The notes: generated by a model not told the origin, from the letters alone. A stretch of DNA of 32,000 bases from an uncultured Nitrososphaerota archaeon (GCA_963701075.1 OY969559.1:1550540-1582539), one strand, 5' to 3'. Counted from the stretch's first letter, positions 1 through 19,622 are shown. Made by a program: numbers and translations.

Positions 1-534
1 TGGTTCACATGGAAGAACCATTGCCATATGCCCCATTGTCGTATACCATGGAGTGGTGTCAGCCACATCCAGAAATTGTCCTGGTTTGAGATGTACGCTA
101 CCAAAATGGAACCATTCTTCAGTTGGGATGTTTGGAGGAGCATCAGCAGTTTGATTATATCCCGGTGAGAACGCTTCGCAGCGACCATAATATGCTATTC
201 CTTGATAGACATAGCACGGATTAGCTGCTGATGAAGCAGAGCTGTCTGCAACACACCAACCAGTGAATGTCCACGGATTACCTAAAAATGAGGTAGTATC
301 AGTGAAGGTTGGTATTGGCGGCCCTCCCAGATATGTGGCAGGATATGTCGTCTGCTGACAAGTTCCTTCAGATGTTGTGAACGCCGGTACATACACCCAA
401 GGAGTGGAGGTATACATTTTTGGGGTCACAAGTGCGTACGCAGAAGGTACTATGTGAGTCGGACCTAGTCCAAACCCAACAGTAGCAACAATTGTCAGTA
501 CTAGGATTGTAGTTAGAAGCGATTGTTTTTGCAC
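1..534 (-). CDS. secreted Cys-containing protein, partial (C-terminus runs off the left edge)
   Basis: Not in the supplied track. GTG start at 534-532, frame open to nt 1 (178 codons). N-terminus VQKQSLLTTILVLTIVATVGFGLGPTHIVPSAYA looks like a signal peptide. The tracked ORF 368..550 is in another frame and looks spurious. A TATA-like TTAAAATAAA and the palindromic motif at 571..593 lie upstream. Confidence 0.6.
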   Translation of the reverse strand, partial: MQKQSLLTTILVLTIVATVGFGLGPTHIVPSAYALVTPKMYTSTPWVYVPAFTTSEGTCQQTTYPATYLGGPPIPTFTDTTSFLGNPWTFTGWCVADSSASSAANPCYVYQGIAYYGRCEAFSPGYNQTADAPPNIPTEEWFHFGSVHLKPGQFLDVADTTPWYTTMGHMAMVLPCEP

Positions 535-570
535 TATTGAACTTGAACAAATTGATTTATTTTAAGAGTC

Positions 571-593
571 TGGTTCATTCTACAAATGTACCA
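571..593 (-). promoter_or_regulatory. imperfect palindrome TGGTTCA-N9-TGTACCA next to the TATA box of the 1..534 gene
   Basis: Read directly: tggttca ttctacaaa tgtacca. Same arm/spacer geometry as the perfect palindrome at 2398..2420. TATA-like tttattttaa at 556..565, 5 nt from the proximal arm; start codon at 534. Confidence 0.55.
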
Positions 594-687
594 GTAGTGT
601 TTTGAGATAAATCAACATGTTTTGTTTCTAAAGATCGTAAGTTTCTAAATCAGAATTTCTCAGGATCAAATACAATTTCGATACAAT

Positions 688-879
688 TTACAAATAGTTG
701 GAATCTATTTGTAATGCGAAATATTGTGGAGTGGCATTTGGATGTAAAATTTTTCCAACCCGATCCCCGTTGCACGGCATGACATGCCATACAACAAAGG
801 ATGGATCAGTGATGAAGTCAAAACGATACGCGTCTTGTTTATTGATTAAACATTTTACAAGATAAAGCAATAGATACAT
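688..879 (-). CDS. hypothetical small protein (63 aa), doubtful
   Basis: ATG-initiated ORF only, with no recognisable motif. It lies downstream of oligo-T tracts that may terminate the upstream gene. Confidence 0.25.
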   Translation of the reverse strand: MYLLLYLVKCLINKQDAYRFDFITDPSFVVWHVMPCNGDRVGKILHPNATPQYFALQIDSNYL

Positions 880-897
880 TTGCAGAATAAACCACTG

Positions 898-914
898 AAA
901 AAATTATGAAAAAA
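898..914 (-). terminator. candidate archaeal oligo-T terminator after the 935..2353 gene
   Basis: Two T6 tracts on the minus strand (A6 at 898..903 and 909..914 on plus), 21-37 nt past the stop codon. Oligo-T is the known archaeal termination signal. Confidence 0.3.
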
Positions 915-934
915 TAGATTCAGAATATACAGAG

Positions 935-2353
935 TCAGTTGCAGACAGGATTGTTTAGACAATGAAGACTTGCGCCAGTAAGAGTTGCACCGCCCAAGTC
1001 TACGCTCCTTAAATCAGCACCGTCAAAATTAGCTCCTGTTAGGTCTGCATAAGCAAATCCAGTACCTTGCAAGCTTGCACCCCTGAAATCAGCACCTCTA
1101 AGGTCAGAATTCATGAGAAGTGCACCGTCTAGATCCGCGCCATTAAATGAGACACGTTCCATAGTTGCCCACCTCATCTGACTCCCCTGCAAATTAGCAC
1201 CAGTCATGTTTGCACCATTAAGAGTCACATAGTCAAAATCAGAAGTTCCCAAGTCGGTGCCAATCATTTGCGTGCCACTCATATTTGCGCTAGAAAGATC
1301 ACTGTTTTCCATATTAGCATTGGTAAAGTTAGCAAAGTCAATGTTTGCTTCCACCAAGTCTGATTTGTAAAGGTTCGCACCAGCAAAATTTGCGCCAACA
1401 AGATTGGCTGACGATAGATTAACATGGCTTAGATTATTTCCAGATTTATCGCAGAACGCCCAATCCACACTAGGAAGGTTTTCTGTCTGACAATAACCCG
1501 CGTGACGTACCACATCTACATTTACTTGATATGGAGGCCTTGCGGGAGAACTGAAGTATTTTATATAATCAGCTGATGTCAAGTTGCCTGATGATAACAC
1601 TCCTGCCAAATCTGCTAGCGCATTAGGCGTGGATAGCATATTAGATTGTGGTGTTCCTGCCATACTATTCATCATACCTTGCGCGTAATAATCAAATGAA
1701 AATATTCCTGACATGCCAATCATGTTATTCTCAATCTTATCAAAGAAAGAAGGGATAATAATGCACTGCGATGTCTGTCCTGGCAAGCTTTGCGTGTTAA
1801 CACAATTTGGTTTTGAATATGACATGCTGCTACCAGAGGTCGACATGCCTGACATGCCGTTCATGCCTGACATGCCGTTCATGCCTGACATGCCGTTCAT
1901 GCCTGACATGCCGTTCATGCCTGACATTCCTGACATGCCTTGCGTATTACAATTTGTCATTTCCGACATGGCTTGCGGATTATATGCCATGCTTTGAACG
2001 TCATTACAGTATATCGTTTGCCCCATCGCTGTTAGCAAACCATCAGATGTACTGCTTATTCCTGACATGCTACTCATACCTGACATATTGGCAGACATCC
2101 CAGACATACCTTGCATGTTATTTGAAGATGAGTTAGCAAAGTTTTGACCTGAAACAAGAGTCTGTATCGAATTAATAAAATCTTGGTCACTGATTTGCCC
2201 ATTGGCCCACAGTAATGCCTTGTAATGAAACCATGCCGGTATGGTGGTTGGCATGACTTGGGCGCTAGCATGATTTTGTGACAATCCCATGCTGAGAATC
2301 AATACAGAGAAGAGTAGCGTTACTGCTGTTAATGTTATTCTTGTTGTTTGCAT
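935..2353 (-). CDS. secreted chimeric protein: signal peptide + IPAW..LWANGQISDQDF module + Met-rich (MSGM/MNGM) tracts + C-terminal pentapeptide-repeat domain
   Basis: N-terminal hydrophobic signal (LTAVTLLFSVLILSMGLS..ASA). Met-rich tracts QGMSGMSANMSGMSSMSG and GMSGMSGMNGMSGMNGMSGMNGMSGMNGMSGMS. About 170 aa of A(N/D)LxG-type pentapeptide repeats (ANLVGANFAGANLYKSDLVEANIDFANFTNANM...GADLRSVDLGGATLTGASL). Confidence 0.85.
   Translation of the reverse strand: MQTTRITLTAVTLLFSVLILSMGLSQNHASAQVMPTTIPAWFHYKALLWANGQISDQDFINSIQTLVSGQNFANSSSNNMQGMSGMSANMSGMSSMSGISSTSDGLLTAMGQTIYCNDVQSMAYNPQAMSEMTNCNTQGMSGMSGMNGMSGMNGMSGMNGMSGMNGMSGMSTSGSSMSYSKPNCVNTQSLPGQTSQCIIIPSFFDKIENNMIGMSGIFSFDYYAQGMMNSMAGTPQSNMLSTPNALADLAGVLSSGNLTSADYIKYFSSPARPPYQVNVDVVRHAGYCQTENLPSVDWAFCDKSGNNLSHVNLSSANLVGANFAGANLYKSDLVEANIDFANFTNANMENSDLSSANMSGTQMIGTDLGTSDFDYVTLNGANMTGANLQGSQMRWATMERVSFNGADLDGALLMNSDLRGADFRGASLQGTGFAYADLTGANFDGADLRSVDLGGATLTGASLHCLNNPVCN
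1844..1915 (-). repeat. four perfect tandem copies of an 18-bp unit (catgcctgacatgccgtt) inside the CDS, decaying to about 1940
   Basis: Read directly. Units at 1844, 1862, 1880 and 1898, with a fifth diverged copy from 1916. They encode (NGMSGM)n on the minus strand. Confidence 0.95.
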
Positions 2354-2397
2354 TTATCTTCTAAGAATCTAGAATTGCTGCGAGATAATAAATAACA

Positions 2398-2420
2398 TGG
2401 TACATTCGATAATTGTACCA
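2398..2420 (-). promoter_or_regulatory. perfect palindrome TGGTACA-N9-TGTACCA next to the TATA box of the 935..2353 gene
   Basis: tggtaca ttcgataat tgtacca, with 7-bp arms that are exact reverse complements. TATA-like ataataaataa at 2385..2395, 2 nt from the proximal arm; ATG at 2353. Confidence 0.65.
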
Positions 2421-2535
2421 ATATTCAGATTTTAAAACTAGAAATTAATTTTGCATTTTAATAAATGAATTTAGAAATATGTTGTAATTATATTAAAGTG
2501 TAAATATTTTTTATCATTGTTCCTTAGCGTTTAAT

Positions 2536-3429
2536 TTATTTTCTTGGAATCACTCTAGACATAACTATTATACCAACAAATGATATCATCACAAGTAGTA
2601 TTGGCATAGGAAACTCCGGTACGGCAGTTATATTGAATGCAGATATCAGGTTAGGATGAATTTGCATGTGCACCACCATCATGACATCATTACCAGATCC
2701 CTGGGCATCTATTTTTTGTTTGAGTTCAGGGAGCGCAGTTCCAACTTTGTCAAGGTATACGGATGTACTTGACGGTGCAATTGATTGCAAATTATTAAAC
2801 ATGGTTTGAGCCGCATCAGTCATAGCCTGTGCACTTTGATATGCCGCCATATTGACAATTGGCGTGCTAGATGCAGTACTAGATGATGACATTCCGGACA
2901 TGCTGCCCATGTTCATATTATTCATGTTGGTAAGATCTACCTTGGACCCTATAGCATTACCATAGTCCTTCAACACTTCATTTAAGACATAAACCGTTGC
3001 AAGTGCCTGTACCGTAGCGTTATTTTGTGAAGCGCTGCTGACTTCTTCTGATTCTGCTTGGTCCAAGAGTTGGCCTATCTCATCTGCAGTTTGGTTTGCT
3101 GCGGCAGGATTTGCGTTTGGTTGTCCTGCCATAGAATACAAGTCATCTATAGATGTAGATAACTGAGTAGCAAGACTCGAGTTTGTTTGAGAAAGAATGC
3201 CCATCTCGTTGCTTCCCCAATATTCCTGACTTTGCGATATGTGCCACTGGGCCAAGGTACTATTAGAAATATTATTTGCTATCAATTTTGATTCTACCTT
3301 GAACTCTTGAACTTTTGCTATCAAACTTGCATCTGAATTTTGAACAAAGTTATGGGCAAACGCTGGATGAGCAACCAACATGCCACTGAACACAATAACC
3401 ATTATTGATACCGCCAGCGCCCTTTTCAT
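2536..3429 (-). CDS. secreted helical protein with predicted N-terminal His after signal cleavage, Met-rich tract and PEF-CTERM sorting tail
   Basis: Signal MKRALAVSIMVIVFSGMLVAHPAFA followed by HNFVQ. Met-rich tract MNNMNMGSMSGMSSSS. C-terminus AVPEFPMPILLVMISFVGIIVMSRVIPRK (PEF + TM + basic tail). Confidence 0.8.
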   Translation of the reverse strand: MKRALAVSIMVIVFSGMLVAHPAFAHNFVQNSDASLIAKVQEFKVESKLIANNISNSTLAQWHISQSQEYWGSNEMGILSQTNSSLATQLSTSIDDLYSMAGQPNANPAAANQTADEIGQLLDQAESEEVSSASQNNATVQALATVYVLNEVLKDYGNAIGSKVDLTNMNNMNMGSMSGMSSSSTASSTPIVNMAAYQSAQAMTDAAQTMFNNLQSIAPSSTSVYLDKVGTALPELKQKIDAQGSGNDVMMVVHMQIHPNLISAFNITAVPEFPMPILLVMISFVGIIVMSRVIPRK

Positions 3430-3465
3430 ACCAGTGGGTGCGCTGGCAACATTTTAAAATATTTT

Positions 3466-3472
3466 GGTACAC
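3466..3472 (-). promoter_or_regulatory. TGTACCA heptamer (gene orientation) 5 nt upstream of the TATA box of 2536..3429
   Basis: Plus strand tggtaca. TATA-like attttaaaat at 3451..3460; ATG at 3429. Confidence 0.5.
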
Positions 3473-3485
3473 ACATCAAGTAAAA

Positions 3486-3794
3486 TTAATCTGGGTTTTT
3501 TCGCGTTATGGCTACAACTGCTATCACTACACCGGCTGCACCAATTCCTATACCAGCCATGCTTATGACGTATAATGTATCAGTTGTGTCCTTTACTTCT
3601 TGAAAAGACTGGGCAACTTTTGCATAACTTTGAGCTGCATTATCTGCAGTATTCTTTGCGTCGGTGATATCATTGGTTAGCTGATTGATGACATTTTGAG
3701 ACACTTGTGCTGATACAGGATGTATAACATGTGGCGACATTGCAATAACCGTCACAGCAAGAATCGCCGCAAGTATCAATTGTCTGGATTTCAT
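3486..3794 (-). CDS. small secreted/membrane-anchored protein (signal peptide + C-terminal TM)
   Basis: MKSRQLILAAILAVTVIAMSPHVIHPVSA signal, a helical Q/N/D-rich middle, and C-terminal MAGIGIGAAGVVIAVVAITRKNPD. Confidence 0.65.
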   Translation of the reverse strand: MKSRQLILAAILAVTVIAMSPHVIHPVSAQVSQNVINQLTNDITDAKNTADNAAQSYAKVAQSFQEVKDTTDTLYVISMAGIGIGAAGVVIAVVAITRKNPD

Positions 3795-3835
3795 TTCGTT
3801 ATATCAACAAGTGTCGAATTTTCATAAATATGTTA

Positions 3836-3842
3836 TGGTACA
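3836..3842 (-). promoter_or_regulatory. TGTACCA heptamer 4 nt upstream of the TATA box of 3486..3794
   Basis: Plus strand tggtaca. TATA-like ttcataaatat at 3821..3831; ATG at 3794. Confidence 0.5.
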
Positions 3843-3864
3843 AATTCAAAGATTGTGAAATGGT

Positions 3865-4479
3865 TTAGAATTTAAGAAATCCTCTTGTTCTTCCAGTGAC
3901 TACAACAACACTGATTATTGCAATCACAAGAACCAGAGAAGCTACAGGACCAAATTCTGGCACAGTTTGATTGCCTGACATGGTGCTGTTCCCAGTCATG
4001 TTCATGCCTGACATACTAGTCATGGCTGGAAAGTAATACGCGTCCTTGGCTTCAACATCTTGCAGAGGATATGTGGTAGAAGGTATTGTTGTTCCGCCTA
4101 TTGTACCCTGGATTATCATGTTATAGGTTCCAATCTGAGTTGGATTCACAGCGGCATCATACTCTCCAGGCGTATCATCGCTTGGGTCAAAGCTTACTAC
4201 CTTTGTCTGTCCACCATACTGGATGGTTGTGGTCATGTTGTCAAGACCAGTATCTGCGATAGGCGGTGCGTTGTCACTTGTTCCGTTGTATATGAATATC
4301 TGGACTGCATTTGCGTCACCTACAAGCGGTGGCTCATTTACCCAGCCGATCTTTATCGTGACGTTGTTAAATGTTTTTGTGATGTGTGCTTCAGCTGGAT
4401 GAAGTGCAAATGGTGTAACCAAAATAGCAACTAGAGCAAAAACTACGGGAACTAAAAATTTTCTAAGATTCACCCACAT
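3865..4479 (-). CDS. secreted beta-sandwich-like protein with predicted N-terminal His, Met-rich tract and PEFG-CTERM tail (duplicate copy A)
   Basis: Signal ...FALHPAEA followed by HITKTF. Met-rich tract PAMTSMSGMNMTGNSTMSGNQT. C-terminus VPEFGPVASLVLVIAIISVVVVTGRTRGFLKF. Only 11 nt downstream of the 4491..4940 gene, so probably co-transcribed with it. Confidence 0.85.
   Translation of the reverse strand: MWVNLRKFLVPVVFALVAILVTPFALHPAEAHITKTFNNVTIKIGWVNEPPLVGDANAVQIFIYNGTSDNAPPIADTGLDNMTTTIQYGGQTKVVSFDPSDDTPGEYDAAVNPTQIGTYNMIIQGTIGGTTIPSTTYPLQDVEAKDAYYFPAMTSMSGMNMTGNSTMSGNQTVPEFGPVASLVLVIAIISVVVVTGRTRGFLKF
4042..4409. repeat. direct repeat copy A (368 bp, near-identical to 4509..4876)
   Basis: Manual alignment at a constant offset of 467 bp with only a handful of mismatches (e.g. 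ccgcct/ccgtct, gagttggattcacagcggc/gagtcggaatcacagcagc). Confidence 0.9.
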
Positions 4480-4490
4480 TCACTCCACTA

Positions 4491-4940
4491 TCAAGGAAAG
4501 TTATACTTGTCCTTGGCTTCAACATCTTGCAGAGGATATGTGGTAGAAGGTATTGTTGTTCCGTCTATTGTACCCTGGATTATCATGTTATAGGTTCCAA
4601 TCTGAGTCGGAATCACAGCAGCATCATATTCTCCAGGCGTATCATCGCTTGGGTCAAAGCTTACTACCTTTGTCTGTCCACCATACTGGATGGTTGTGGT
4701 CATGTTGTCAAGACCAGTATCTGCGATAGGCGGTGCGTTGTCACTTGTTCCGTTGTATATGAATATCTGGACTGCATTTGCGTCACCTACAAGCGGTGGC
4801 TCATTTACCCAGCCGATCTTTATCGTGACGTTGTTAAATGTTTTTGTGATGTGTGCTTCAGCTGGATGAAGTGCAAGTGGAACCATAATAACTGCTGCCA
4901 AAGCTAGAATTACTGTGACTACAAATTTTCTAGATTTCAT
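4491..4940 (-). CDS. secreted beta-sandwich-like protein with predicted N-terminal His (duplicate copy B), lacking the Met-rich and PEFG-CTERM tail
   Basis: Signal MKSRKFVVTVILALAAVIMVPLALHPAEA followed by HITKTF. The mature domain is almost identical to 3865..4479 but stops at ...KDKYNFP. Confidence 0.85.
   Translation of the reverse strand: MKSRKFVVTVILALAAVIMVPLALHPAEAHITKTFNNVTIKIGWVNEPPLVGDANAVQIFIYNGTSDNAPPIADTGLDNMTTTIQYGGQTKVVSFDPSDDTPGEYDAAVIPTQIGTYNMIIQGTIDGTTIPSTTYPLQDVEAKDKYNFP
4509..4876. repeat. direct repeat copy B (368 bp, near-identical to 4042..4409)
   Basis: See copy A. Confidence 0.9.
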
Positions 4941-4984
4941 GTCTCTCCTGTGATTATCATCAAATTATTTTCTTATATACGTTA

Positions 4985-4991
4985 TGGTACA
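4985..4991 (-). promoter_or_regulatory. TGTACCA heptamer 5 nt upstream of the TATA box of the 4491..4940 / 3865..4479 operon
   Basis: Plus strand tggtaca. TATA cttatata at 4972..4979; ATG at 4940. Confidence 0.5.
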
Positions 4992-5026
4992 AAATCAAAA
5001 CAAGAATTGTTGTTCTATTTTACAAC

Positions 5027-5033
5027 TGTACCA
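5027..5033 (+). promoter_or_regulatory. TGTACCA heptamer 6 nt upstream of the TATA box of the CopC-CopD gene
   Basis: tgtacca, then TATTAAATTATAA at 5040..5052; ATG at 5081. It shares the divergent intergenic region with the 4985 site. Confidence 0.5.
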
Positions 5034-5080
5034 CTATTGTATTAAATTATAAGTGTTCATGAAACGTATAGATTGTATTT

Positions 5081-8000
5081 ATGACAGAAAGAACGAGAGG
5101 GCCAAAATCAACAATCAAAATAATTTTGCTAGTCGTTGTAGCTGTATCGGTCTTGGTCGTGGTGCCAAACATACCCAAGTCTTATGCGCATGCATTTGTT
5201 ATTGGTAGTGATCCTGCACCATTTGCGTCATTGAATACTCCACCAACACAAGTTGAAGTAGATTTTGTTGATCCCATAGACATGCGATATAGTCAGATAA
5301 AGGTCTTGGATTCTAACGGTAAAGAAGTCAATAACAACGACTGGCATTTCATCACTGCTGATCATGAAAAATCAGTTGTTACTTTACCTTCCATTCCGAA
5401 TGGAATTTACACTGTGTATACCAAAGTTCTTGATGCCACTGATGGCCATACCACTACAAACGCATTTGTTTTTGCCGTTGGCCAACCTATACCACAGAAT
5501 CTCTTAAACCAAAAAGAGAGTGTTTCCTTTACAGATATCGTATCCATTCAAGATACAATAGCAAGGTATCCATCACTTGTTGGACAAATCATTGTAGTTG
5601 GTGCTATCTTCTCAACTTTCTGGTTATGGAAACCACTATCTAGAATCTCTGCATTAAAAGACGTCTTTGGACAGACTCGCGTCATGATAGACAAGAGTAT
5701 GACCAAGTTGGTGCTAATTGGCTCAATAATTATTCTGGGTGGAGATGCGGCAATGATTTCATCTGAGATGTATTCAATAAATTCAGGACTCCTAGATGCA
5801 ATTAGCACGAATTTTGGACAAATGTGGATTGTACGTATGTCACTTTCTGCAGCCCTATTTGGAGTGGCATTTGTTGCATACCGTAAACAAAAGCAGTCAA
5901 ATGGGGTCTTGCCCAAAGGCCTAGTCGCAACTCTGTTTGGACTGGGGATAGCGGTACTTACGACAACTACACTGATAAGCCATGGTGCAGCAAGCGGAAA
6001 ATTTTTGGCACTAGTTTTTGATTTCGTACACAACGTTGTTGCTTCACTCTGGATTGGAGGTGTGATATATCTGGCGTTTGTTGTGGCACCGCTATTGAAA
6101 CGTATGCCTGATGATCGTGCCAGCGTTGCCATCATGTCTGTGATAATACCAAGATTCTCCACGGTAGTTGTTGCACTACTTGGCATAGTTGCAATGACAG
6201 GTCCCTCTCTTCTTTACGAACTTGAAAACAACCTCTCCCTCACTCTAGCATCCATATACGGAGATATACTTATCATAAAACTCTCATTGGCCGGTGCCAT
6301 GATTGGAGTTGGCGCTTTCCATCAGTTCATAATTTTTCGACAAGCGCGAAGCGCCATTGCTGTCTCGCCTCAGCAAGAGCATCATGTTGCCATGCCAATC
6401 GATCTAAAAATTCCTATCAAGAGGGGAAGCGAGGGCAAATCAGTCATCTCACATTTTGGCCGATTCATAAAAATTGAGGCAATAATAGGATTTTTGCTGA
6501 TTGCTTCAATAGCAGTTCTTGTCGATTCCGGTCTGCCCGCAATTCAATATCAAAATGAATTGTCGCAACAGAAAAACCAGATTCCGCCTGTCTACGCCTT
6601 TGCAACGCCACTTGTAACGCAGAACCAATTTACAGAAACGCGATTTACAGACACGGGGGACAAAATTGTCTTATCCATCAGTCCGTTCTATTCCGGAAAG
6701 AATAATGTAACGCTCTCGTTTTTTGATTCAAATGGTAACCCACTGAACAGCATAAACTCCACAACGATAACGCTTAACCAAGTAGACAAGGGCATAGGTC
6801 CGTTAGTGGTAGGGTACAACCCACTCGAACCACAGTTCAATAGCAGCAACTCTAAAGAGATATCACCGGGGGTATTTTCCATTAGCACAAGTGCCTTTGC
6901 AATACCGGGTCACTGGGAAGCACAGATAGAGGGAACAACCACACAGGCTGGTGCACTTAACGAGGTTACAACTTTTGATGATCTATATGTCAAGCCTAAC
7001 TTGGCCCAGCTGCAGGCAAACATAACAGAATACAAAATGCCAGATAACGCCCAGCCGTTGTATCCTCTTTATGATCCCATCAGAAATATAGTCTGGGTTG
7101 GAGACTCGGCCATTGGGAGTGGGAGGTTATGGGAGTTTGATCTAGACTCCAAACAGTTTACAGAACATAAGATCAATGGAACCAACATCATCATGTATAC
7201 AATAATGGACTTTCAAAACAACATTTGGTATTCTGACCCCCTAACAAAGATCTTGGGTAATTACGAACCAGACACGGGCAAAGAGCAGAATTACAATCTT
7301 CCTGCCAATGAGACCATTTCAGGTCTTGCCATAGACAACACAGGCAATCTTTGGATGACCTCTGCGTCAAGTAACCAACTGCTAGAATTTGACATGCAGA
7401 AAAAAACATTCCATTCATTGGACCTGCCAGCAAACTCTTCACCACTTGGAATTTCCATAGATCAATCAACCAACCAGATATGGGTAGCAGAAAGTAGTTC
7501 TGGAAAGATAGCAGAGGTAGATCCTTCCCAAAACTACAAAGTGACAGAATATGGTCCATCCAATGGCACCCTTGCAAGTCCCACGACGATTCTATTTGAC
7601 CCTGTAACTGGCAAAGTTTTTGTCTCAGAGCATGATGGCAAGGCAGTATCAGTTTTTGATCCCCTGACCAAGTCATTCGAAAGATATCAGACAGATCCTG
7701 ATCCTCAGGATCTGCCCTTTGGAATGGCATTTGATGCAAACCATGATCTATGGCTTGCTCAACACACCTTTGATAAGATTGCAGTTATAGATCCTAGAAC
7801 TGGCAAAACAAACGAATTTCCCATCCCTACGAAATCATCTTTTACCCAATGGGTCACAGCGGATTCAAAGGGAGATATAATACTGGCAGAACAACGCGCA
7901 AATGCACTTGGTCTTCTTACTACTAGCACAACTCCAGGATTTATCGAAAACGCCGAACAAACAGGTTCAGTCTTGGGCATACCACTGCCATTTAGTTATG

Positions 8001-8119
8001 CAGATGTGGTAGGACCCTCGATTGCAGGTTGCCTCGTAGCAGTGGCATTTCTCTACTCTAAAACCGTAATAGAGTTAAGTGACAGTTTGAGACATATAAA
8101 GAAAAACTACGGCCAGTGA
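5081..8119 (+). CDS. CopC-CopD fusion protein with an extracytoplasmic Ig-like domain, NHL/Vgb-like beta-propeller and C-terminal TM anchor
   Basis: The signal ends ...PKSYA, then HAFVIGSDPAP...VEVDFVDPI...IKVLDSNGKEV...GIYTVYTKVLDATDGHTTTNAFVFAVG, the classic CopC pattern. About 8 hydrophobic helices follow (residues about 160-480, CopD-like). Then repeated blades (IVWVGDS..GRLWEFD, NIWYSDP, NLWMTSASSNQLLEFD, QIWVAESSSGKIAEVD, KVFVSEHDGKAVSVFD, DLWLAQHTFDKIAVID). C-terminal TM IAGCLVAVAFLY. Confidence 0.9.
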   Translation: MTERTRGPKSTIKIILLVVVAVSVLVVVPNIPKSYAHAFVIGSDPAPFASLNTPPTQVEVDFVDPIDMRYSQIKVLDSNGKEVNNNDWHFITADHEKSVVTLPSIPNGIYTVYTKVLDATDGHTTTNAFVFAVGQPIPQNLLNQKESVSFTDIVSIQDTIARYPSLVGQIIVVGAIFSTFWLWKPLSRISALKDVFGQTRVMIDKSMTKLVLIGSIIILGGDAAMISSEMYSINSGLLDAISTNFGQMWIVRMSLSAALFGVAFVAYRKQKQSNGVLPKGLVATLFGLGIAVLTTTTLISHGAASGKFLALVFDFVHNVVASLWIGGVIYLAFVVAPLLKRMPDDRASVAIMSVIIPRFSTVVVALLGIVAMTGPSLLYELENNLSLTLASIYGDILIIKLSLAGAMIGVGAFHQFIIFRQARSAIAVSPQQEHHVAMPIDLKIPIKRGSEGKSVISHFGRFIKIEAIIGFLLIASIAVLVDSGLPAIQYQNELSQQKNQIPPVYAFATPLVTQNQFTETRFTDTGDKIVLSISPFYSGKNNVTLSFFDSNGNPLNSINSTTITLNQVDKGIGPLVVGYNPLEPQFNSSNSKEISPGVFSISTSAFAIPGHWEAQIEGTTTQAGALNEVTTFDDLYVKPNLAQLQANITEYKMPDNAQPLYPLYDPIRNIVWVGDSAIGSGRLWEFDLDSKQFTEHKINGTNIIMYTIMDFQNNIWYSDPLTKILGNYEPDTGKEQNYNLPANETISGLAIDNTGNLWMTSASSNQLLEFDMQKKTFHSLDLPANSSPLGISIDQSTNQIWVAESSSGKIAEVDPSQNYKVTEYGPSNGTLASPTTILFDPVTGKVFVSEHDGKAVSVFDPLTKSFERYQTDPDPQDLPFGMAFDANHDLWLAQHTFDKIAVIDPRTGKTNEFPIPTKSSFTQWVTADSKGDIILAEQRANALGLLTTSTTPGFIENAEQTGSVLGIPLPFSYADVVGPSIAGCLVAVAFLYSKTVIELSDSLRHIKKNYGQ

Positions 8120-8181
8120 TGCCACACCGCATAGGCAGTCACAGATAGCATCATCAGACTATATCAGGCACGTTCGTTCGT

Positions 8182-8188
8182 TGTACCA
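8182..8188 (+). promoter_or_regulatory. TGTACCA heptamer 5 nt upstream of the TATA box of the 8223..9115 operon
   Basis: tgtacca cttgg TTTAAAT (8194..8200); GTG start at 8223. Confidence 0.5.
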
Positions 8189-8222
8189 CTTGGTTTAAAT
8201 TTCATTTTGACCAATTTCCATT

Positions 8223-8615
8223 GTGTTCAGGCCCCAAACTCTGATTGAGACTAAGTCTACACTGTTAAGTGTAATAATATTTGCACTTGTTGCAGCGTTA
8301 TCAATTCCTGTCATCCTACCCCACATATTTCAACAATACGAGCTTTTCCACATACTTTTACACATTAGCGGAATAGGTTTTGCGTCTTTTCTTACAATAG
8401 TAGCTGCAATGGCATATCACAAGGTCAAGACCCGCAGACTTCTTTTCACTACCATTGCGTTTGGCACTTTTATTTTGTCTGAAGTATTTGATCTAATTGA
8501 TGCAGCATGGCAGTCAAAATATTATTTTTGGAGTTTTTCATCATCTGAGATAGCTCATCTTATCATGTTCTTCACATTACTGATGTTTGCACTAAGTGTG
8601 TTTAGGAGAGATTGA
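8223..8615 (+). CDS. small integral membrane protein (about 4 TM helices)
   Basis: GTG start. Four hydrophobic segments (LLSVIIFALVAALSIPVIL, ILLHISGIGFASFLTIVAAMAY, LLFTTIAFGTFILSEVF, IAHLIMFFTLLMFALSVF). 4-nt overlap with the next gene. Confidence 0.65.
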   Translation: MFRPQTLIETKSTLLSVIIFALVAALSIPVILPHIFQQYELFHILLHISGIGFASFLTIVAAMAYHKVKTRRLLFTTIAFGTFILSEVFDLIDAAWQSKYYFWSFSSSEIAHLIMFFTLLMFALSVFRRD

Positions 8616-9115
8616 AAATGGATAGAGTTACACAGTTAATTGAGGTTATTGAAAAAAACCCTGGAATAAAATTTCGCGAGATAATGCGAGAGACTGGAAT
8701 GAAAAACGGCGTTCTAGGATATTATGCAGGCAAGCTAGAAAGAGAGGGATCTGTAAAGGTTGATAGAAGTCCTGGGCAGACTAGATTTTATCCTCCAGGA
8801 ATATCAGATGATGACACATTACTGATAAAGAATCTAAGACAGGAGACACCAAGGCAGATTCTTGCATCTTTATTGCAATATGGAATGCTATCATTCAATG
8901 AGCTAGTTGAGAAGACACGAAAATCTCCGGCTACAGTTTCCCTCTATCTCTCACAAGTAACAAGAGACAATATCATTGAAAGTAAACTAGTCGATTTCAA
9001 AAAGAGATACCATGTTAAAGACATAGAAAAATTACAAAAAATTATTGATAAATATCATCCAAGCTTGATTGAAAGTTCAGCGGATCATCTTGCCGATACT
9101 TTCTCATCACTTTAA
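8612..9115 (+). CDS. archaeal transcriptional regulator with two winged-helix (ArsR/MarR-like) modules
   Basis: IEVIEKNPGIKFREIMRETGMKNGVLGYYAGKLEREGSVKV and RQILASLLQYGMLSFNELVEKTRKSPATVSLYLSQVTRDNIIE both fit wHTH patterns. ATGA overlap with the upstream membrane-protein gene. Confidence 0.7.
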   Translation: MKMDRVTQLIEVIEKNPGIKFREIMRETGMKNGVLGYYAGKLEREGSVKVDRSPGQTRFYPPGISDDDTLLIKNLRQETPRQILASLLQYGMLSFNELVEKTRKSPATVSLYLSQVTRDNIIESKLVDFKKRYHVKDIEKLQKIIDKYHPSLIESSADHLADTFSSL

Positions 9116-9359
9116 AAACATCACAGATATTATTTTCACAATATTTGAGTTAAAAAGCAGACAGCCGAGAACGAAGATCAGCGTTTATTTAGAGTTCAGA
9201 TAAATGCATACGATAAGATGGCACATGTCATGAGATCTGCATATTTTTTCAGCTATTTTCATCATTGTTGTTTCCCTTTTCCTTGTTTCAAAAGCACACG
9301 GTGACGGTTTAGTTAGTGAGATTCTTCCACCGTCTCTGATAGGAAACACTAATGTTACT

Positions 9360-10667
9360 TTGTCTATTGGTTCTGTCCCATTTTTAATTAACGATACTCA
9401 CGTAGGGACACAGTTGAATCTCGTACTGATGGATGCCGACACCCAGCAGCCAATTCAGGATGCAACACTTGCAATTTCAGCATTCAAGGGTCAGAATGCA
9501 GTTTTTGGCCACATATTCAAGAGTGATAGCGGAAATTTTATTTTGAGTTTTTATCCACAACAATCTGGCAACACGACATTTGACGAACAGGGCGGGCTTC
9601 TTTCAGACTTGTTCGGTCAAGATAGTGGAAATTACGACGTAAAAGGCCCAATCTTTAACACAGCAGGATTGTATAGATTCAAAATCGAGGTTATTACGAT
9701 GGGTGCATATGATAATCAAGTAAGCAGGTCGTATACTGCCGGTATATCAATACCAGAATATGACAACCTTACAATTAACGATCCAGGTTACGGAACTCAA
9801 CAGATGCAGATCATAGCATATTATGATAGGTTGCAGAACATCACATATGATCCAGTCAAAAAATTTGTTAATTTCACCATGCCATTTGACTGGTCAAATC
9901 AGACCATAAGCCAACTGAGTGTAGTACATCAAGAGATCAGAATTCCAAGAACTCTGGGAGATCTGGTGGTAACAAAATATGATGCCTATGTGAACAACAT
10001 CAAGATACCTGACAAGCTGATATCAATAGATGATTACTCCATGGATGCATATAGAATAGTGCATCTCATTTTATACAAGCCCGATGTACAAAATCTTTTT
10101 TCAGAACAAAAAGATCCGGGTCAAGTGATGAATTTTGCAATGAGGCCAAGCAATGATAACGCTTTCCCAATTGTACAGTTTACTAGAAATGCACAGTATA
10201 AAATAGCACTAAGTTGGAATCCACCAAAGATCCTAACTGGTTCCACTGTACAGTTTAACTTTAAGGTTCTAGATCCATTTGCCATGAATACAACAGTGAG
10301 TCCAATTTCTTATGATTTTTCTGTACTTGAAGGAGAAAATGGAGTGATATACCACCAGATAGGAAAAACAACTGATACAAGCTACGGAGACAACATCAAT
10401 GTCGCATTTCCATCTAATTACACAGGATCAATCACAATAGCATTTGAGAACCTAAATGGAAGTAGTTTTTCTGCTACAGAATTTCCAGCTACAGTTAGCA
10501 ACCCAGCAATGACAACCAATCAATCAGCAGTCAACAGCCAAGCTATTGCAGCTAATCAATCTACAGTGCCAGAGTTTCCGTTAACTACATTTGTAGTACT
10601 TGCAACCGTATTTGGATTAGTTGTGTCATTTTCAAAGATGAGTTTGCTCAAATCAATGCGGATTTGA
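9360..10667 (+). CDS. secreted PEF-CTERM protein; 5' end apparently disrupted (see finding)
   Basis: C-terminus STVPEFPLTTFVVLATVFGLVVSFSKMSLLKSMRI. The tracked TTG start lacks a signal peptide. The same frame is open upstream from 9234 and encodes IFSAIFIIVVSLFLVSKAHG, but the ATGs (9218, 9230) are in the adjacent frame. Confidence 0.8.
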   Translation: MSIGSVPFLINDTHVGTQLNLVLMDADTQQPIQDATLAISAFKGQNAVFGHIFKSDSGNFILSFYPQQSGNTTFDEQGGLLSDLFGQDSGNYDVKGPIFNTAGLYRFKIEVITMGAYDNQVSRSYTAGISIPEYDNLTINDPGYGTQQMQIIAYYDRLQNITYDPVKKFVNFTMPFDWSNQTISQLSVVHQEIRIPRTLGDLVVTKYDAYVNNIKIPDKLISIDDYSMDAYRIVHLILYKPDVQNLFSEQKDPGQVMNFAMRPSNDNAFPIVQFTRNAQYKIALSWNPPKILTGSTVQFNFKVLDPFAMNTTVSPISYDFSVLEGENGVIYHQIGKTTDTSYGDNINVAFPSNYTGSITIAFENLNGSSFSATEFPATVSNPAMTTNQSAVNSQAIAANQSTVPEFPLTTFVVLATVFGLVVSFSKMSLLKSMRI

Positions 10668-12029: not shown

Positions 12030-12827
12030 TTACTGTGCCCCAATTAAGAAAATGACGTTGACCGTTGCTGTGATGTCTTGATTTGATGCAAGTATTGGCG
12101 TTTGTGCCATCTGAGGTGCAGGAGCACTCATCGCTGTCATACCATAGGTTTGAACTGGCGAAGGCATGTTGAACTCAGATAGGTTTACCGTTTTTACACC
12201 TATGATTTTCTGGCCAAGTGGAGCTAATGCCTTTTCAGCTTTTGATTGTGCATCCAAGACTGCCAAACTAATTAGATCGTTTTGAACACTCTGTTGTTTT
12301 GCCGGTGAAAGTAAGAACGATACACTATCCACCCTATTTGCTCCTGCGCCAACTGCTGCATCAAGTATTCTACCTGTTAGGTGTAGTTGAGTTGTTTTGA
12401 TGAGTAATGTATTGGAAACTTGGTATCCGACAAGATCATTTTTGTATTCGTTATATGGAGGATACGGACCCGTCTGATTATAGACTGGATCTATTGTAAA
12501 GCTGTTAGTGCCGGTTTCATTGTTGGCAATGCCAAGATTTTGTATCGCAGTAATTGTGGCATTTGTCGCTTGAGCGTTTTCACTCATTGCATCTTGCGCT
12601 GTTTTTGCTTGTGTGTCAACACCTAACTGTATGGCTACAAGATCTGGAGAGACTGACAAGGTTGCAGTTCCAGTCACAGAGGTGGTGTTCTGCTGCGGTA
12701 GGAAATAATATGATGCTTGTTGTGCATATGCTTTATTGCCATAGGTTTGCATATCAGCAGAGATCGTTGTCGACACAATTGCAATTGCTGCAAGTGCGGC
12801 CAGAATTATTGTGGTTTTATTTGTCAT
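12030..12827 (-). CDS. SIMPL/DUF541-family secreted protein
   Basis: N-terminal anchor TIILAALAAIAIVSTTISA. VTGTATLSVSPDLVAIQLGVDTQAKTAQDAMSENAQATNATITAIQNLGI and GYQVSNTLLIKT are typical of DUF541. Confidence 0.7.
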   Translation of the reverse strand: MTNKTTIILAALAAIAIVSTTISADMQTYGNKAYAQQASYYFLPQQNTTSVTGTATLSVSPDLVAIQLGVDTQAKTAQDAMSENAQATNATITAIQNLGIANNETGTNSFTIDPVYNQTGPYPPYNEYKNDLVGYQVSNTLLIKTTQLHLTGRILDAAVGAGANRVDSVSFLLSPAKQQSVQNDLISLAVLDAQSKAEKALAPLGQKIIGVKTVNLSEFNMPSPVQTYGMTAMSAPAPQMAQTPILASNQDITATVNVIFLIGAQ

Positions 12828-13837: not shown

Positions 13838-15007
13838 CTATTTGAGGCGTAATTTTGAAATTGCAGTTATGATATTTTTCTGAATTCTCTTGTCATACAT
13901 GCTTGGTATGATGTGGTCATAGTGAAGTTCCCTATTTGAGACCGTTTTTGCTATTGCCACTGCAGTAACAAGTAATAATTTCATCGTTATTTTGTTTATT
14001 CTTTTATCCAGTATTGCCCGCATAAGGTGAGGAAATACTAGGGCATTGTTGACTTTGTTAGGATAAAGATAACTCCCAGTTGCTACAATTTTTGCACCAG
14101 CTGCTTTTGCTATCTCAGGTTTTATCTCAGGATCGGGGTTGGTAAGTGCAAAAACTATTGGATCTTGGTTCATCGTTTTTATAATTTTAAAAGTGAGCAG
14201 ATTTTTCTTTCCTGATACACCGATGAAAACATCAGCATTTTTCAGTGCGTCACACAGCGAGCCTTTTTCTTTTTTTGGGTTTGTCATATCTCCGAGTTCT
14301 TTTTTGTATTTGTTCATATTTGCAGTTCGTCCCTTGTAAATTATGCCATCAGAATCTGTAACAAGTATATTTTTGCAGCCAGATGCAGCAAGTAATTTGC
14401 ATATACCATACCCTGCAGAGCCAGCTCCTGCCACTACCACCCTGATTGTAGAGAGTTGTTTTTTGGTGAGTTTTAACGAGTTTAGCAATGCGGAAAGCAC
14501 TACCACTGAAGTTCCATGCCTATCATCATGAAAGATTGGAATAGGCAGTGACTTTTCCAACTCGTCAGATATTTCCATCACTTTTGGAGATTCAATATCT
14601 TCCAGGTTTATGGCGCCAAATACAGGTTCAATTGCCTTGATTGTAGCAATGATTTCATCTTTCTTTGTGGTATCAAGACAGATAGGAAAAGCGCTTACAC
14701 CACCAAATTCTTGGTAAAGAACTGCCTTTCCTTCCATAACTGGCAATGCAGCATACGGGCCTATGTTTCCCAATCCAAGTATTCTTGTACCATCAGTCAC
14801 TATAGCTACATTATTTCCTTTGGAGGTAAGAGTATATTTTTTTTCAGGATGATGATAGATTTCTTTGCATACTGCCGCAACCCCTGGAGTATAGATTAGT
14901 TTTATCTCGTTTGATCTCAAATTCTTGATTTTTCCTGTAACAATTATCTTTCCTTTTAATTTCTTGTGTAATGCAAGTGCCTTCTTTGAGTTCTGATCAG
15001 AAATCAT
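13838..15007 (-). CDS. NAD(P)-dependent malic enzyme (oxaloacetate-decarboxylating malate dehydrogenase)
   Basis: LALHKKLKGKIIVTGK...IYTPGVAAVCKEI, DGTRILGLGNIGP..ALPVMEGKAVLY, NLEDI..P, FHDDRHGTSVVVLSALLN and VVAGAGSAGYG are all hallmark short-form malic enzyme motifs. Confidence 0.92.
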   Translation of the reverse strand: MISDQNSKKALALHKKLKGKIIVTGKIKNLRSNEIKLIYTPGVAAVCKEIYHHPEKKYTLTSKGNNVAIVTDGTRILGLGNIGPYAALPVMEGKAVLYQEFGGVSAFPICLDTTKKDEIIATIKAIEPVFGAINLEDIESPKVMEISDELEKSLPIPIFHDDRHGTSVVVLSALLNSLKLTKKQLSTIRVVVAGAGSAGYGICKLLAASGCKNILVTDSDGIIYKGRTANMNKYKKELGDMTNPKKEKGSLCDALKNADVFIGVSGKKNLLTFKIIKTMNQDPIVFALTNPDPEIKPEIAKAAGAKIVATGSYLYPNKVNNALVFPHLMRAILDKRINKITMKLLLVTAVAIAKTVSNRELHYDHIIPSMYDKRIQKNIITAISKLRLK

Positions 15008-16328: not shown

Positions 16329-17714
16329 TCATTCAACATGATGTTGTACTATCAGCTGGTCGTAGAATCTTACTGACTTGATATTGACAAACTCTAACAT
16401 GCCATATCTTGAGAGTTCTCTTCCAAAGCCACTTTGTTTTACTCCACCAAAAGGTATTCTTGGATCAGAGACAACAACGTTGTTTACTGCAACAAGCCCA
16501 GATTCGACCAATCTTGACAGCTTGTCAGCTTTATCCAGATCCTGAGTCCAAATACTCCCACCAAGGCCATATTGTGACCCGTTAGCAAGGCGTATTGCCT
16601 CCATTTCATCTTCTACGATAGTTATTGGTGCAACGGGTCCAAATGCCTCCTCATTAGCCATACGCATGTTGGTGGTAACATTACCAAGTATTGTTGGACT
16701 GTAAAAGTATCCCTTGCTGTTCATCCTCTTACCACCAGTTAGTACTTCAGCACCTTTGTCTACGGCATCTTTTACAAGTTCTTCTATTTTTTCAAGACCT
16801 TCTGAATTTACCATAGGTCCTATGTCAGTATCTTCAGATGTTGGGTCTCCCACTCTGAGTTTCTCCGTTTTTTGAACAAACTTTTCAATAAATTCTTTGG
16901 CAAGATTTTTTGTTACAAAAAATCTTTTTGATGCAATACAGCTTTGTCCACAGTTGATAAAACGCCCTTTGACTGCACCTGTGGATGCCTTTTCAGCATC
17001 TGCGTCCGAGCACACTATGAAAGGATCGCTGCCGCCAAGTTCTAGGACGCATTTCTTTATTTTGGAGGTAGCCCGTTGTGCCACTTTTGCGCCAGCCATG
17101 TTACTGCCAGTAAATGTCACAGCGTTAACAGAATCTATGAGCTGCTCTGCCATGGAAGAATCAGCAATCGCGGTTTGGAAGACACCTTCAGGCAATCCTG
17201 CTTTCTTGAACATATTTTCAATTTCTATACCGCACTGCATTGTGGCACTAGCCGGCTTTAGAACAACAGTATTCCCAGCCATCAACGAAGGAGCAGCAAA
17301 TCTCAAAGCTTGCCAGTATGGAAAATTCCATGGCATTATACTTCCAATTACCCCTATTGGCTCAAACGCAATGAAGCTCTTTCTAGCATCAGTGTTTACG
17401 GATTCATCATGAAGAAAGGTTCCACTGTTATCGGCATAAAACTCCATAACCCAAGCACACTTTTCAACTTCGGATAACGATTCCTTGATTGCCTTACCCA
17501 TCTCTTTTGTTGCAGTAAGTGCCAACTGTTGTTTGTTTTTTCGCAAAACATCAGCAAAAATATTGATAAAATCAGATCTTCTTTTGATATCTCTTTTCCA
17601 ATCAGAAAAGGCCTTTTTTGATTTTTCTATTTTTTTATCCAGTTCGTCTTTTGTTATAACATCGTATTGTGCCAAAACCTCCTCTGTTGTAGGATTAACT
17701 GTCTTGATTACCAT
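16329..17714 (-). CDS. NAD(P)+-dependent aldehyde dehydrogenase (succinate-semialdehyde dehydrogenase-like)
   Basis: MVIKTVNPTTEEVL start (internal ATG at 17714 preferred over the tracked 17780). WNFPYWQ, VLKPAS, FTGS, ELGGSDP and the catalytic FINCGQSCIASKR. Confidence 0.9.
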   Translation of the reverse strand: MVIKTVNPTTEEVLAQYDVITKDELDKKIEKSKKAFSDWKRDIKRRSDFINIFADVLRKNKQQLALTATKEMGKAIKESLSEVEKCAWVMEFYADNSGTFLHDESVNTDARKSFIAFEPIGVIGSIMPWNFPYWQALRFAAPSLMAGNTVVLKPASATMQCGIEIENMFKKAGLPEGVFQTAIADSSMAEQLIDSVNAVTFTGSNMAGAKVAQRATSKIKKCVLELGGSDPFIVCSDADAEKASTGAVKGRFINCGQSCIASKRFFVTKNLAKEFIEKFVQKTEKLRVGDPTSEDTDIGPMVNSEGLEKIEELVKDAVDKGAEVLTGGKRMNSKGYFYSPTILGNVTTNMRMANEEAFGPVAPITIVEDEMEAIRLANGSQYGLGGSIWTQDLDKADKLSRLVESGLVAVNNVVVSDPRIPFGGVKQSGFGRELSRYGMLEFVNIKSVRFYDQLIVQHHVE

Positions 17715-19023: not shown

Positions 19024-19622
19024 TTGCAAACCAAGTTTGCAGATGTCTGGGGGCACAAAGTAAGATACTTGGAGGAAGGCAAGTCAGGTAAAACGATCCT
19101 GCTTATCCATGGATTAGGCGGTTCTGCAGAGAGATGGTTAAAAGTCATCCCTATTTTGAGCCCAAAGTACAGGGTTATCGCCCCCGATATGATCGGTTTT
19201 GGATATAGCGACAAGCCTTCAGTTGACTATACAATAGAATTTTTTGGCAAGTTCCTATCTGCTTTTATTGATACATTAGGCCTAAAAACAGCGATTCTGG
19301 TAGGTACCTCTCTTGGAGGGCAGATTGCAGCAGAATGTACTAACACCAATCATGCCATAGAAAAGTTAGTCCTTGTTTCCCCTTCTGGGGCCATGAAACA
19401 GTCTACTGCAGCTGTAGACGCATACATGATGGCTGCTCTCTATCCCAATCATGCAAGTGCTAGAACTGCATTTGAGATGATGGCCAATTCAGGTACAGTT
19501 GACGAGTTTACAGTATCTGATTTTGTAAAAAGAATGTCCATTCCAAACGCAAAGCTTGCGTTTATCTCTTCAGTCCTAGGAATAAAGAACTCGAAGATAG
19601 ATGAAAGTTTGCAGAAGATCTG
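19024..19622 (+). pseudogene. alpha/beta hydrolase paralog 1, N-terminal fragment (nucleophile half), cut by the inversion junction
   Basis: Collinear with the 23131..23919 paralog (HGLGGSAERW, GTSLGG, LYPNH) up to ...IDESLQKI. The rest of the tracked ORF (CMFVGKRDSIF...) is antisense to a phasin-like N-terminus. Confidence 0.8.

Follow-up and report, generated by a model that had tools for sequence, protein, structure and literature searches.

A composite sequence element, TTY-N6-TGWACCA-N5-TATA, optionally preceded by an inverted distal arm (TGGTACA), marks seven promoters of a copper island in a 32,000-nucleotide (nt) stretch of DNA from an uncultured Nitrososphaerota archaeon (GCA_963701075.1 OY969559.1:1550540-1582539; the window, hereafter). 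The same element recurs in related loci, where it precedes orthologous genes without change of orientation or spacing, and in the window it also stands before the operon that encodes a regulator with two winged-helix domains (8612-9115, plus strand). With moderate confidence, we read this composite site as the mark of the regulon with which ammonia-oxidising archaea acquire copper and, most likely, as the operator bound by the 8612-9115 regulator, which would probably act as an activator at low copper. The connection with copper is supported by published data on Nitrososphaera viennensis, in which the same motif is found before genes induced by copper limitation.

A count of the exact heptamer TGTACCA over both strands of the whole window gave 12 occurrences, compared with 4.2 +/- 2.1 in shuffled sequences, none of which (0/100) reached 12. 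Eight of them (587+, 2398-, 2414+, 3465-, 3836-, 4985-, 5027+ and 8182+, the signs giving the strand) fall within the 951 base pairs (bp) of intergenic DNA between positions 535 and 8222, for which a composition-aware calculation predicts 0.095 copies (Poisson P ~1.5e-13). The remaining four matches (14786, 21831, 30641 and 31731) lie within open reading frames (ORFs), with neither a TTY upstream nor an A/T-rich box downstream, and no other promoter of the window carries the composite pattern, even when one mismatch is permitted. The sequence-only reading that drew attention to the heptamer had counted 11 copies, eight of them in the intergenic DNA of the island and three in coding regions elsewhere; the eight stand, as does the coding location of the others, which number four (30641, on the minus strand, had been overlooked). 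Its statement that heptamer promoters are restricted to the island agrees with the scan.

At all seven promoters listed in that reading the heptamer points toward the gene, in the form TGAACCA at 571-577, and the word ends 34-47 nt before the start codon. On the minus strand, the promoter of gene 1..534 (558..593) comprises a distal TGGTACA (593..587), the spacer TTTGTAGAA, the proximal TGAACCA (577..571), a 5-nt spacer and the TATA box TTAAAATA (565..558), while that of gene 935..2353 (2385..2420) is built from a perfect TGGTACA-N9-TGTACCA (2420..2398), a 5-nt spacer and the TATA box TTTATTAT (2392..2385); the palindromes at 571-593 (imperfect) and 2398-2420 (perfect) are as first described. 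The same strand carries the promoters of gene 2536..3429 (3452..3471: TGTACCA at 3471..3465, spacer AAATA, TATA box TTTTAAAA at 3459..3452), of gene 3486..3794 (3823..3842: TGTACCA at 3842..3836, spacer TAACA, TATA box TATTTATG at 3830..3823) and of the operon 4491..4940 + 3865..4479 (4972..5000: TTT-N6-TGTACCA with the word at 4991..4985, spacer TAACG, TATA box TATATAAG at 4979..4972). The last of these is divergent from the plus-strand promoter of the CopC-CopD (CopCD) gene (5018..5046: TTT-N6-TGTACCA with the word at 5027..5033, spacer CTATT, TATA box GTATTAAA at 5039..5046). Also on the plus strand, the promoter of the regulator operon (8173..8201) contains TTC-N6-TGTACCA (word at 8182..8188), the spacer CTTGG and the TATA box TTTAAATT (8194..8201). 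In this operon the GTG start follows the motif by 34 nt and the midpoint of the TATA box by ~26 nt, so the transcript is probably leaderless; the other units have short leaders, one of them with GGAG. Two details of the first description needed amending: the site given as 3466 occupies 3465-3471, and the A/T-rich TATA-like box, itself confirmed, follows the word after 5 nt at all seven promoters and not after 2-6 nt, a range that arose because the TATA register had been picked by eye.

To describe the layout of the site, 34 non-identical promoter-proximal copies from the window and ten related (Nitrosotalea) loci were aligned on the heptamer. An A/T-only box with the consensus TTTAWAWT starts exactly 5 nt past the heptamer in all 34 sites, and G or C makes up just 2 of the 204 letters at positions +13 to +18 from the motif start. 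On the other side of the word, TTY occupies positions -9..-7, with an invariant T at -8, and TTY and TGWACCA lie one helical turn apart. Considering all loci, the spacer between inverted arms measures exactly 9 nt in 18 of 19 pairs, giving TGGTACA-TTC-N6-TGTACCA, and the distal arms are mostly without a TATA box of their own. Direct tandem copies exist as well, as in the arrangement TGTACCA-N12-TGTACCA-N5-TATA before a Nitrososphaerales secreted protein gene (locus L017), and the TGT and TGA variants coexist in single genomes (window site 571; L017). In promoter coordinates, the proximal word extends from about -41 to -35, the TTY lies near -49 and the distal arm spans about -57 to -51.

The word occurs 62 times in the intergenic DNA of the window and the ten Nitrosotalea loci (25.9 kb in total), versus 31 times in their ORF DNA (148 kb), and its orientation and spacing are kept before orthologous genes. 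The composite pattern was then used to scan 101 loci (653 kb), grouping the downstream ORFs into families. The operon of the membrane protein and regulator accounts for 80 sites, followed by the secreted HPAEA-H beta-sandwich proteins (10 sites), CopCD (9), a secreted protein of 435-544 residues (9), Met-rich proteins (8), a secreted protein of 297-321 residues (6) and a Nitrososphaerales secreted protein of 394 residues (4), and the singleton ORFs found downstream are mostly behind matches without the TTY.

The tie to the regulator operon was followed further in a metagenome scan seeded with a 7-sequence alignment. Among the 63 metagenomic loci with enough upstream DNA, whose regulators are 49-90% identical to that of the window, the operon is preceded by TTC-N6-TG[TA]ACCA-N5-TTTAAAT in 60, and the remaining three have TGAACCA in the same place and failed the TATA filter. 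The distance from the box to the regulator start is ~428-430 nt in most of these loci and ~500 nt in four. Over the 60 regulator promoters, column information amounts to 1.91 bits for the word, 1.65 for TTY and 1.55 for the TATA box, with 0.26-0.59 in the flanks. The marine clade variant is TGAACCA. The site also precedes the gene pair in Nitrosopelagicus and in three Nitrososphaerales loci, one of them on a contig at 62% G+C, and in one Nitrosopumilales lineage (locus L011) the box before the regulator operon (5330-5350) is TCTACCA, a one-base variant in the same register. Directly after the regulator, this last locus has a gene for a plastocyanin-type copper protein (6288-7199).

An element of this kind has been reported before in a single species. 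Reyes et al. (2020, ISME J, PMC7785015) described the motif 5'-TTCSGSMTTTGWACYANT-3', with 12 occurrences, at -35 to -70 from the start codons of N. viennensis genes upregulated under copper limitation. Behind it are copC/D_b (two copies), exported proteins of unknown function and MCO4 genes, as well as NVIE_014290, presumed to share a transcript with the ArsR-family regulator gene NVIE_014280 (PMC7785015). The log2 fold changes under copper limitation given there are +2.47 for the regulator NVIE_014280, +2.72 for NVIE_014290, +2.68 and +2.20 for the CopC/D genes and +2.80 for the exported protein between them (PMC7785015). Core and layout agree with those found here (TTC-N6-TGWACYA), as do the start-codon distance (34-47 nt between motif end and start codon in our set) and the gene set, with CopC/D, exported proteins of unknown function and an operon whose last gene encodes an ArsR-type regulator; duplicated motifs and motifs on the opposite strand are also on record for N. 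viennensis, and inverted and tandem second copies are present in our loci. The genomes themselves differ, that of the window belonging to another order (Nitrosotalea, Nitrosopumilales) and being far poorer in G+C; the low-G+C genomes do not keep the S-rich centre of the N. viennensis consensus, which is visible in the G+C-rich Nitrososphaerales copies (TTTGAGCGATGAACCA, TTTGACGCGTGAACCA). With sequence, position and gene set all matching, the window site is, as judged by sequence comparison, the same element as the N. viennensis copper-limitation motif.

That study left aside where the motif lies relative to the TATA box and the B recognition element (BRE) and gave no description of the 9-nt-spaced palindrome; conservation in other species was examined there solely for a different, 'downregulated' motif, and the ArsR-type protein was not proposed as the binder (PMC7785015). 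In later papers NVIE_014290 is called a putative cation channel and the cluster appears only as biofilm-induced, and the literature searched contained no later study of the motif, its binding protein or the regulator. As far as this literature extends, therefore, the conservation of the element in both orders of ammonia oxidisers, its fixed 5-nt TATA register, the 9-nt dyad and the steady tie to the operon of membrane protein and regulator are new.

The operon behind the box at 8182 encodes two proteins on the plus strand. The first (8223..8615) is a 130-residue membrane protein with approximately four hydrophobic stretches, translationally coupled to the regulator gene and a candidate copper sensor or channel, in which H34, H43, H47, H112, E87, E109, D93 and W96 are invariant or nearly so among 47 sequences. 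The second (8612..9115), the candidate binder of the box, has 165/167 residues (165 when counted from ATG 8618), with two winged-helix domains by Pfam, an AlphaFold model with a predicted local distance difference test (pLDDT) value of 88 and a conserved C-terminal tail that is predicted to be disordered. Its C-terminal domain is ArsR-like by profile (Pfam HTH_5, 1.8e-6; HlyU as PDB profile, E = 1.5e-7) and by Foldseek, with template modelling (TM) scores of ~0.7-0.8 and a root-mean-square deviation of ~2 A to PagR, NolR and HlyU; a fold search with the whole chain returned generic tandem winged-helix proteins only. ArsR/SmtB subunits have a single winged-helix domain, versus two in this chain, and pair into homodimers that repress in the apo form. 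The Cys/His metal site of that family (alpha3N or alpha5) is absent, as the protein has no Cys and three His, none of which is invariant. The first residues of the recognition helices (N30-G31; T106, S108) and R50 of the wing are invariant across regulators at 32-86% identity, and these constant DNA-contact positions fit the constant DNA target. In a near-identical assembly (L098, 7 differences in 12.3 kb), an extra G relative to window position 8904 shortens the call for this gene to 97 residues, the window copy being intact; further single-base indels of L098, at window positions 241 and 10868, are probably homopolymer errors of that assembly.

These observations can be assembled into a model in which the tandem winged-helix regulator would bind the box, including the one at its own operon (autoregulation), while the His-rich membrane partner (8223-8615) would sense or conduct copper and supply the signal. 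One protomer would read the bipartite TTY-N6-TGWACCA, with a second protomer on the inverted arm of those sites that have one. At low copper, the regulator on its DNA site would aid the assembly of TATA-binding protein (TBP) and transcription factor B (TFB) on the adjoining promoters, and the resulting induction would comprise CopCD, the secreted Met/His-rich proteins and the operon of the regulator itself, with copper reversing the effect. The induction by copper limitation is taken here from the literature on a related organism, whereas the binder, the direction of control and the sensing step are our proposal. Between the two readers suggested at the outset, a TFB paralog recognising a specialised BRE and a dimeric regulator with the double winged-helix protein as candidate, the analysis sides with the latter: the 9-nt dyad, the tandem copies, the distal arms without TATA box and the presence of the box at the operon of the candidate itself (60/63) favour an operator, and the first suggestion finds no support, with a word 5 nt away from the TATA box and copies that are unable to act as BRE.

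Within this regulator model we lean slightly toward activation, both because a site upstream of the BRE and TATA box is the position of an activator and because the use of one register and one orientation across unrelated promoters suggests a stereospecific contact with TFB/TBP and not occlusion. Archaeal activators such as Ptr2 and TFB-RF1 typically bind DNA that lies entirely upstream of the BRE, and a site so strictly fixed in register and orientation with respect to the TATA box suggests close interplay with TBP/TFB, so that TFB may have a role as well. Classic ArsR proteins bind DNA in the apo-form, which under activation would translate into induction at low copper.

Several points weigh against a regulator that reads the box and activates from it. 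The loci were gathered through CopCD or the regulator and hence do not form an unbiased genome sample, and two distant regulator homologues (L100 and L101) are without the site. NVIE_014280/014290 are presumably orthologous to 8223-9115, by annotation and gene order. The regulator shows no obvious metal site of its own, membership in a regulon need not mean control of it, and a second conserved helix-turn-helix protein (242 residues, L098 17982-18710) is encoded close by. When 82 promoters without the motif were aligned on their best TATA match, no clear profile of a normal BRE emerged, and a weak BRE at the motif promoters is thus not claimed. Finally, the proximal half-site abuts or overlaps the edge of the BRE, a position that is also compatible with repression by occlusion. 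Beside the copper island, several Nitrosotalea loci (L098 17690-18710; L006 2787-3506; L007 1086-2146; L009 3074-4141) share a second conserved gene pair, encoding an HTH_5/MarR_2 protein of 239-246 residues and a Cys-rich, zinc-ribbon-like protein of 102 residues, which is an alternative or additional regulator candidate.

Control could also run in the opposite direction, with the regulator taking up copper, either by itself or by way of the membrane protein, then binding the box and blocking TFB/TBP, so that low copper would bring derepression. The induction published for copper limitation fits such derepression equally well, and in the nearest bacterial analogue, the ycnKJI operon of Bacillus subtilis, the CopC-CopD importer is reported to be under a copper-dependent repressor, YcnK (PMC8424229). 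Moreover, ArsR-type domains are found mostly in repressors. The proximal half-site lies tight against the BRE, which keeps copper-dependent repression in serious contention: the half-site ends 5 nt from the TATA box, where a bound winged-helix protein would leave little room for that element. Occlusion, however, needs no strict register or orientation relative to the TATA box, yet both are seen across at least eight unrelated gene families; archaeal repressors usually bind across the TATA box or the start of transcription, and the regulator is without a Cys or a conserved His cluster that could hold copper as corepressor. On this evidence we rate repression as less likely than activation.

A specialised, extended BRE of one TFB paralog, which would by itself confer a copper-dependent choice of promoters, would account for a strictly fixed orientation and TATA distance, as expected of a core-promoter element, and the last base of the word, at -6 from the TATA box, coincides with the outer edge of the canonical BRE; these archaea also have many TFB paralogs, and their TFB genes respond to growth conditions (PMC12448741). 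Nevertheless, the gap of 5 nt to the TATA box, the distal copies without a TATA box and the dyad structure make this explanation improbable. The canonical archaeal BRE comprises roughly 6 nt and abuts the TATA box. At every site, 5 variable nt come between the word and the TATA box, and the word thus lies just upstream of a canonical BRE and has at most its last A in common with it. Nor does the site behave as a single oriented element per promoter: the proximal copy is oriented, but 18 inverted pairs with N9 spacing and the tandem pairs occur besides, and these inverted arms (at a rigid 9 nt) and tandem copies (12 nt apart) are too far upstream and usually without a TATA box. The conserved TTY, one helical turn upstream, is beyond any TFB footprint; TFB binds as a monomer, whereas the full site is a dyad; and behind one such site a sequence-specific regulator is always encoded.

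That the heptamers reflect chance, compositional bias or mobile-repeat remnants without a regulatory role, as a short word in A/T-rich intergenic DNA of repetitive character might suggest, is effectively refuted by the enrichment in the window (Poisson P ~1e-13), the intergenic bias, the unrelated flanks of paralogous sites, the retention of the site at orthologous promoters whose flanks diverge and across genomes of 31% to 62% G+C, and the lack of a match to any Rfam family.

Returning to the activator model, it can be extended, in a form that we offer as tentative and rather doubtful, to a new archaeal metal-sensing pair, in which the His-rich four-helix membrane protein would report external or membrane copper to a tandem winged-helix activator free of metal sites, itself reading TTY-N6-TGWACCA as a 'pseudo-dimer' and acting via TFB/TBP from a place fixed at 5 nt from the TATA box. 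If this were true, the pair would be the master switch of copper acquisition in ammonia oxidisers of the Nitrosopumilales and Nitrososphaerales, organisms with a copper-dependent energy metabolism.

Among the genes behind the boxes of the window, 5081..8119 (plus strand) encodes a CopC-CopD fusion with a C-terminal beta-propeller, a probable copper importer with its closest relatives in Nitrosotalea genomes (52-85% identity), the genus to which the window is assigned. The regulon members described next are on the minus strand, and Pfam and NCBIfam searches with the regulon proteins, even at E = 10, gave no match for most of them. Two paralogous secreted beta-sandwich proteins are encoded in 3865..4940 (in operon order, 4491-4940 and 3865-4479), each with a signal peptide followed by HPAEA-H, the second with a PEFG-CTERM anchor. 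These tandem paralogs are near-identical over ~400 nt, with an Ig-like beta-sandwich and a predicted mature N-terminus that is a His, and the downstream paralog of the pair adds a Met-rich linker and the PEFG-CTERM anchor. The model of the 4491..4940 product is an Ig-like sandwich with Helicobacter pylori CrdA as best PDB match, a weak one (E = 4.6e-4, TM 0.5-0.66) that stands among generic filamin-type folds; even at E = 10 this protein gave no Pfam or NCBIfam match, DUF1775 (YcnI) included.

Gene 935..2353, with its own box, encodes a secreted protein in which Met-rich repeats, (MSGMNG)n, are specified by a perfect tandem repeat in the DNA (1840-1930) and pentapeptide repeats make up the C-terminal half. 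It is unusual to find a Met motif of the copper(I) type paired with a domain of pentapeptide repeats. Three further members, each behind its own box, are a secreted protein of 297 residues (2536..3429), a secreted or membrane protein of 102 residues (3486..3794) and a secreted protein of which the window contains the 5' part of the gene (1..534), the rest running past the left end. A 435-residue ORF in 9205-10667 belongs to a gene that has a copper box in other lineages (L007 17303 and marine loci) and none in the window. The ORF is called from TTG 9360; its signal peptide is coded upstream, in a frame other than that of the ATGs at 9205 and 9229, and with one T less in the T6 run at 9244-9249 the product would again resemble the L006 orthologue (MHAIRANALMRVEYFLIIF...AHGDGLASE). 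L098 has this T6 run too, which reflects either a true frameshift or an error common to both assemblies.

Assembly L098 provides a further 9 kb of sequence past the left end of the window, and in it the copper island runs on beyond window position 1 (L098 12354-21419). Boxed promoters are found there before genes for a 141-residue Met-rich protein (14095-14520) and a 100-residue His-rich protein (16892-17194), and there is a palindrome at 19156-19178. No convincing ORF follows the boxes at 12785, 12991 and 18890, orphans that could drive small RNAs or antisense transcripts. The same region encodes a CopA-type (P-type) ATPase, a YHS-domain protein and two small, Cys-rich, metallothionein-like ORFs (14614-14760 and 17387-17500). 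A different arrangement is seen in L007 (6249-6873) and L010 (7051-7668), where four boxed promoters, including two full palindromes, follow one another ~200 bp apart with no ORF of at least 70 residues; downstream of these boxes there is only an ORF of 29-41 residues or nothing, and they could form a small-peptide or non-coding array under copper control.

Ammonia-oxidising archaea carry out ammonia oxidation and electron transport with copper enzymes, and copper availability limits their growth and hence nitrification. On how they sense the metal, the literature searched offered a single clue, the motif of one species. That motif now appears as an element conserved from acidophilic Nitrosotalea of soils to marine Nitrosopelagicus and G+C-rich Nitrososphaerales, and the question of copper sensing becomes a testable model that involves one protein and one 23-bp DNA, with and without copper. 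The composite site also provides a sequence signature with which the copper-starvation regulon could be predicted in any such genome or metagenome, and it flags uncharacterised secreted Met/His-rich proteins as probable copper-acquisition factors.

Set beside known systems, the box shares with the canonical archaeal BRE a fixed orientation, a fixed distance to the TATA box and a location on its upstream side, but differs in the five variable nt before the TATA box, in the larger dyad or tandem site and in serving one small regulon. The CRR1/SPL7 copper-response elements of Chlamydomonas and plants have a GTAC core and belong to promoters that are switched on in copper deficiency. Our box has the GTAC core too, but its functional variant TGAACCA is without GTAC, and Pfam found no SBP domain in the tandem winged-helix candidate; the likeness is probably coincidental. 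With the ArsR/SmtB family, the regulator has in common its second winged-helix domain, which matches by profile and fold, and its N. viennensis counterpart is annotated as 'ArsR family'. It differs, however, in having two winged-helix domains per chain, no Cys and no conserved metal-site residues, and the system as a whole stands apart through its response to metal scarcity, an operator upstream of the core promoter and a partner gene for a membrane protein. A parallel in promoter geometry is offered by Ptr2, TFB-RF1, EarA and GvpE, which likewise use a site directly upstream of the BRE in a fixed register and for which recruitment of TBP or TFB is expected; these proteins belong to another family and recognise other DNA sequences, and for the window system activation is what we infer.

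The closest bacterial parallel is the ycnKJI cluster of B. subtilis (PMC8424229, PMC12154828), which likewise combines a CopC-CopD fusion with secreted accessory proteins that bind copper, is expressed under copper scarcity and encodes its own dedicated regulator, YcnK, described as a copper-dependent repressor (PMC8424229). Its promoter is of the bacterial sigma-70 type, the beta-sandwich proteins of the window are not members of the YcnI (DUF1775) family by sequence and match its fold only generically, and the analysis gives no sign of kinship between YcnK and the tandem winged-helix protein. The two systems are alike in their functional logic but apparently built from unrelated parts.

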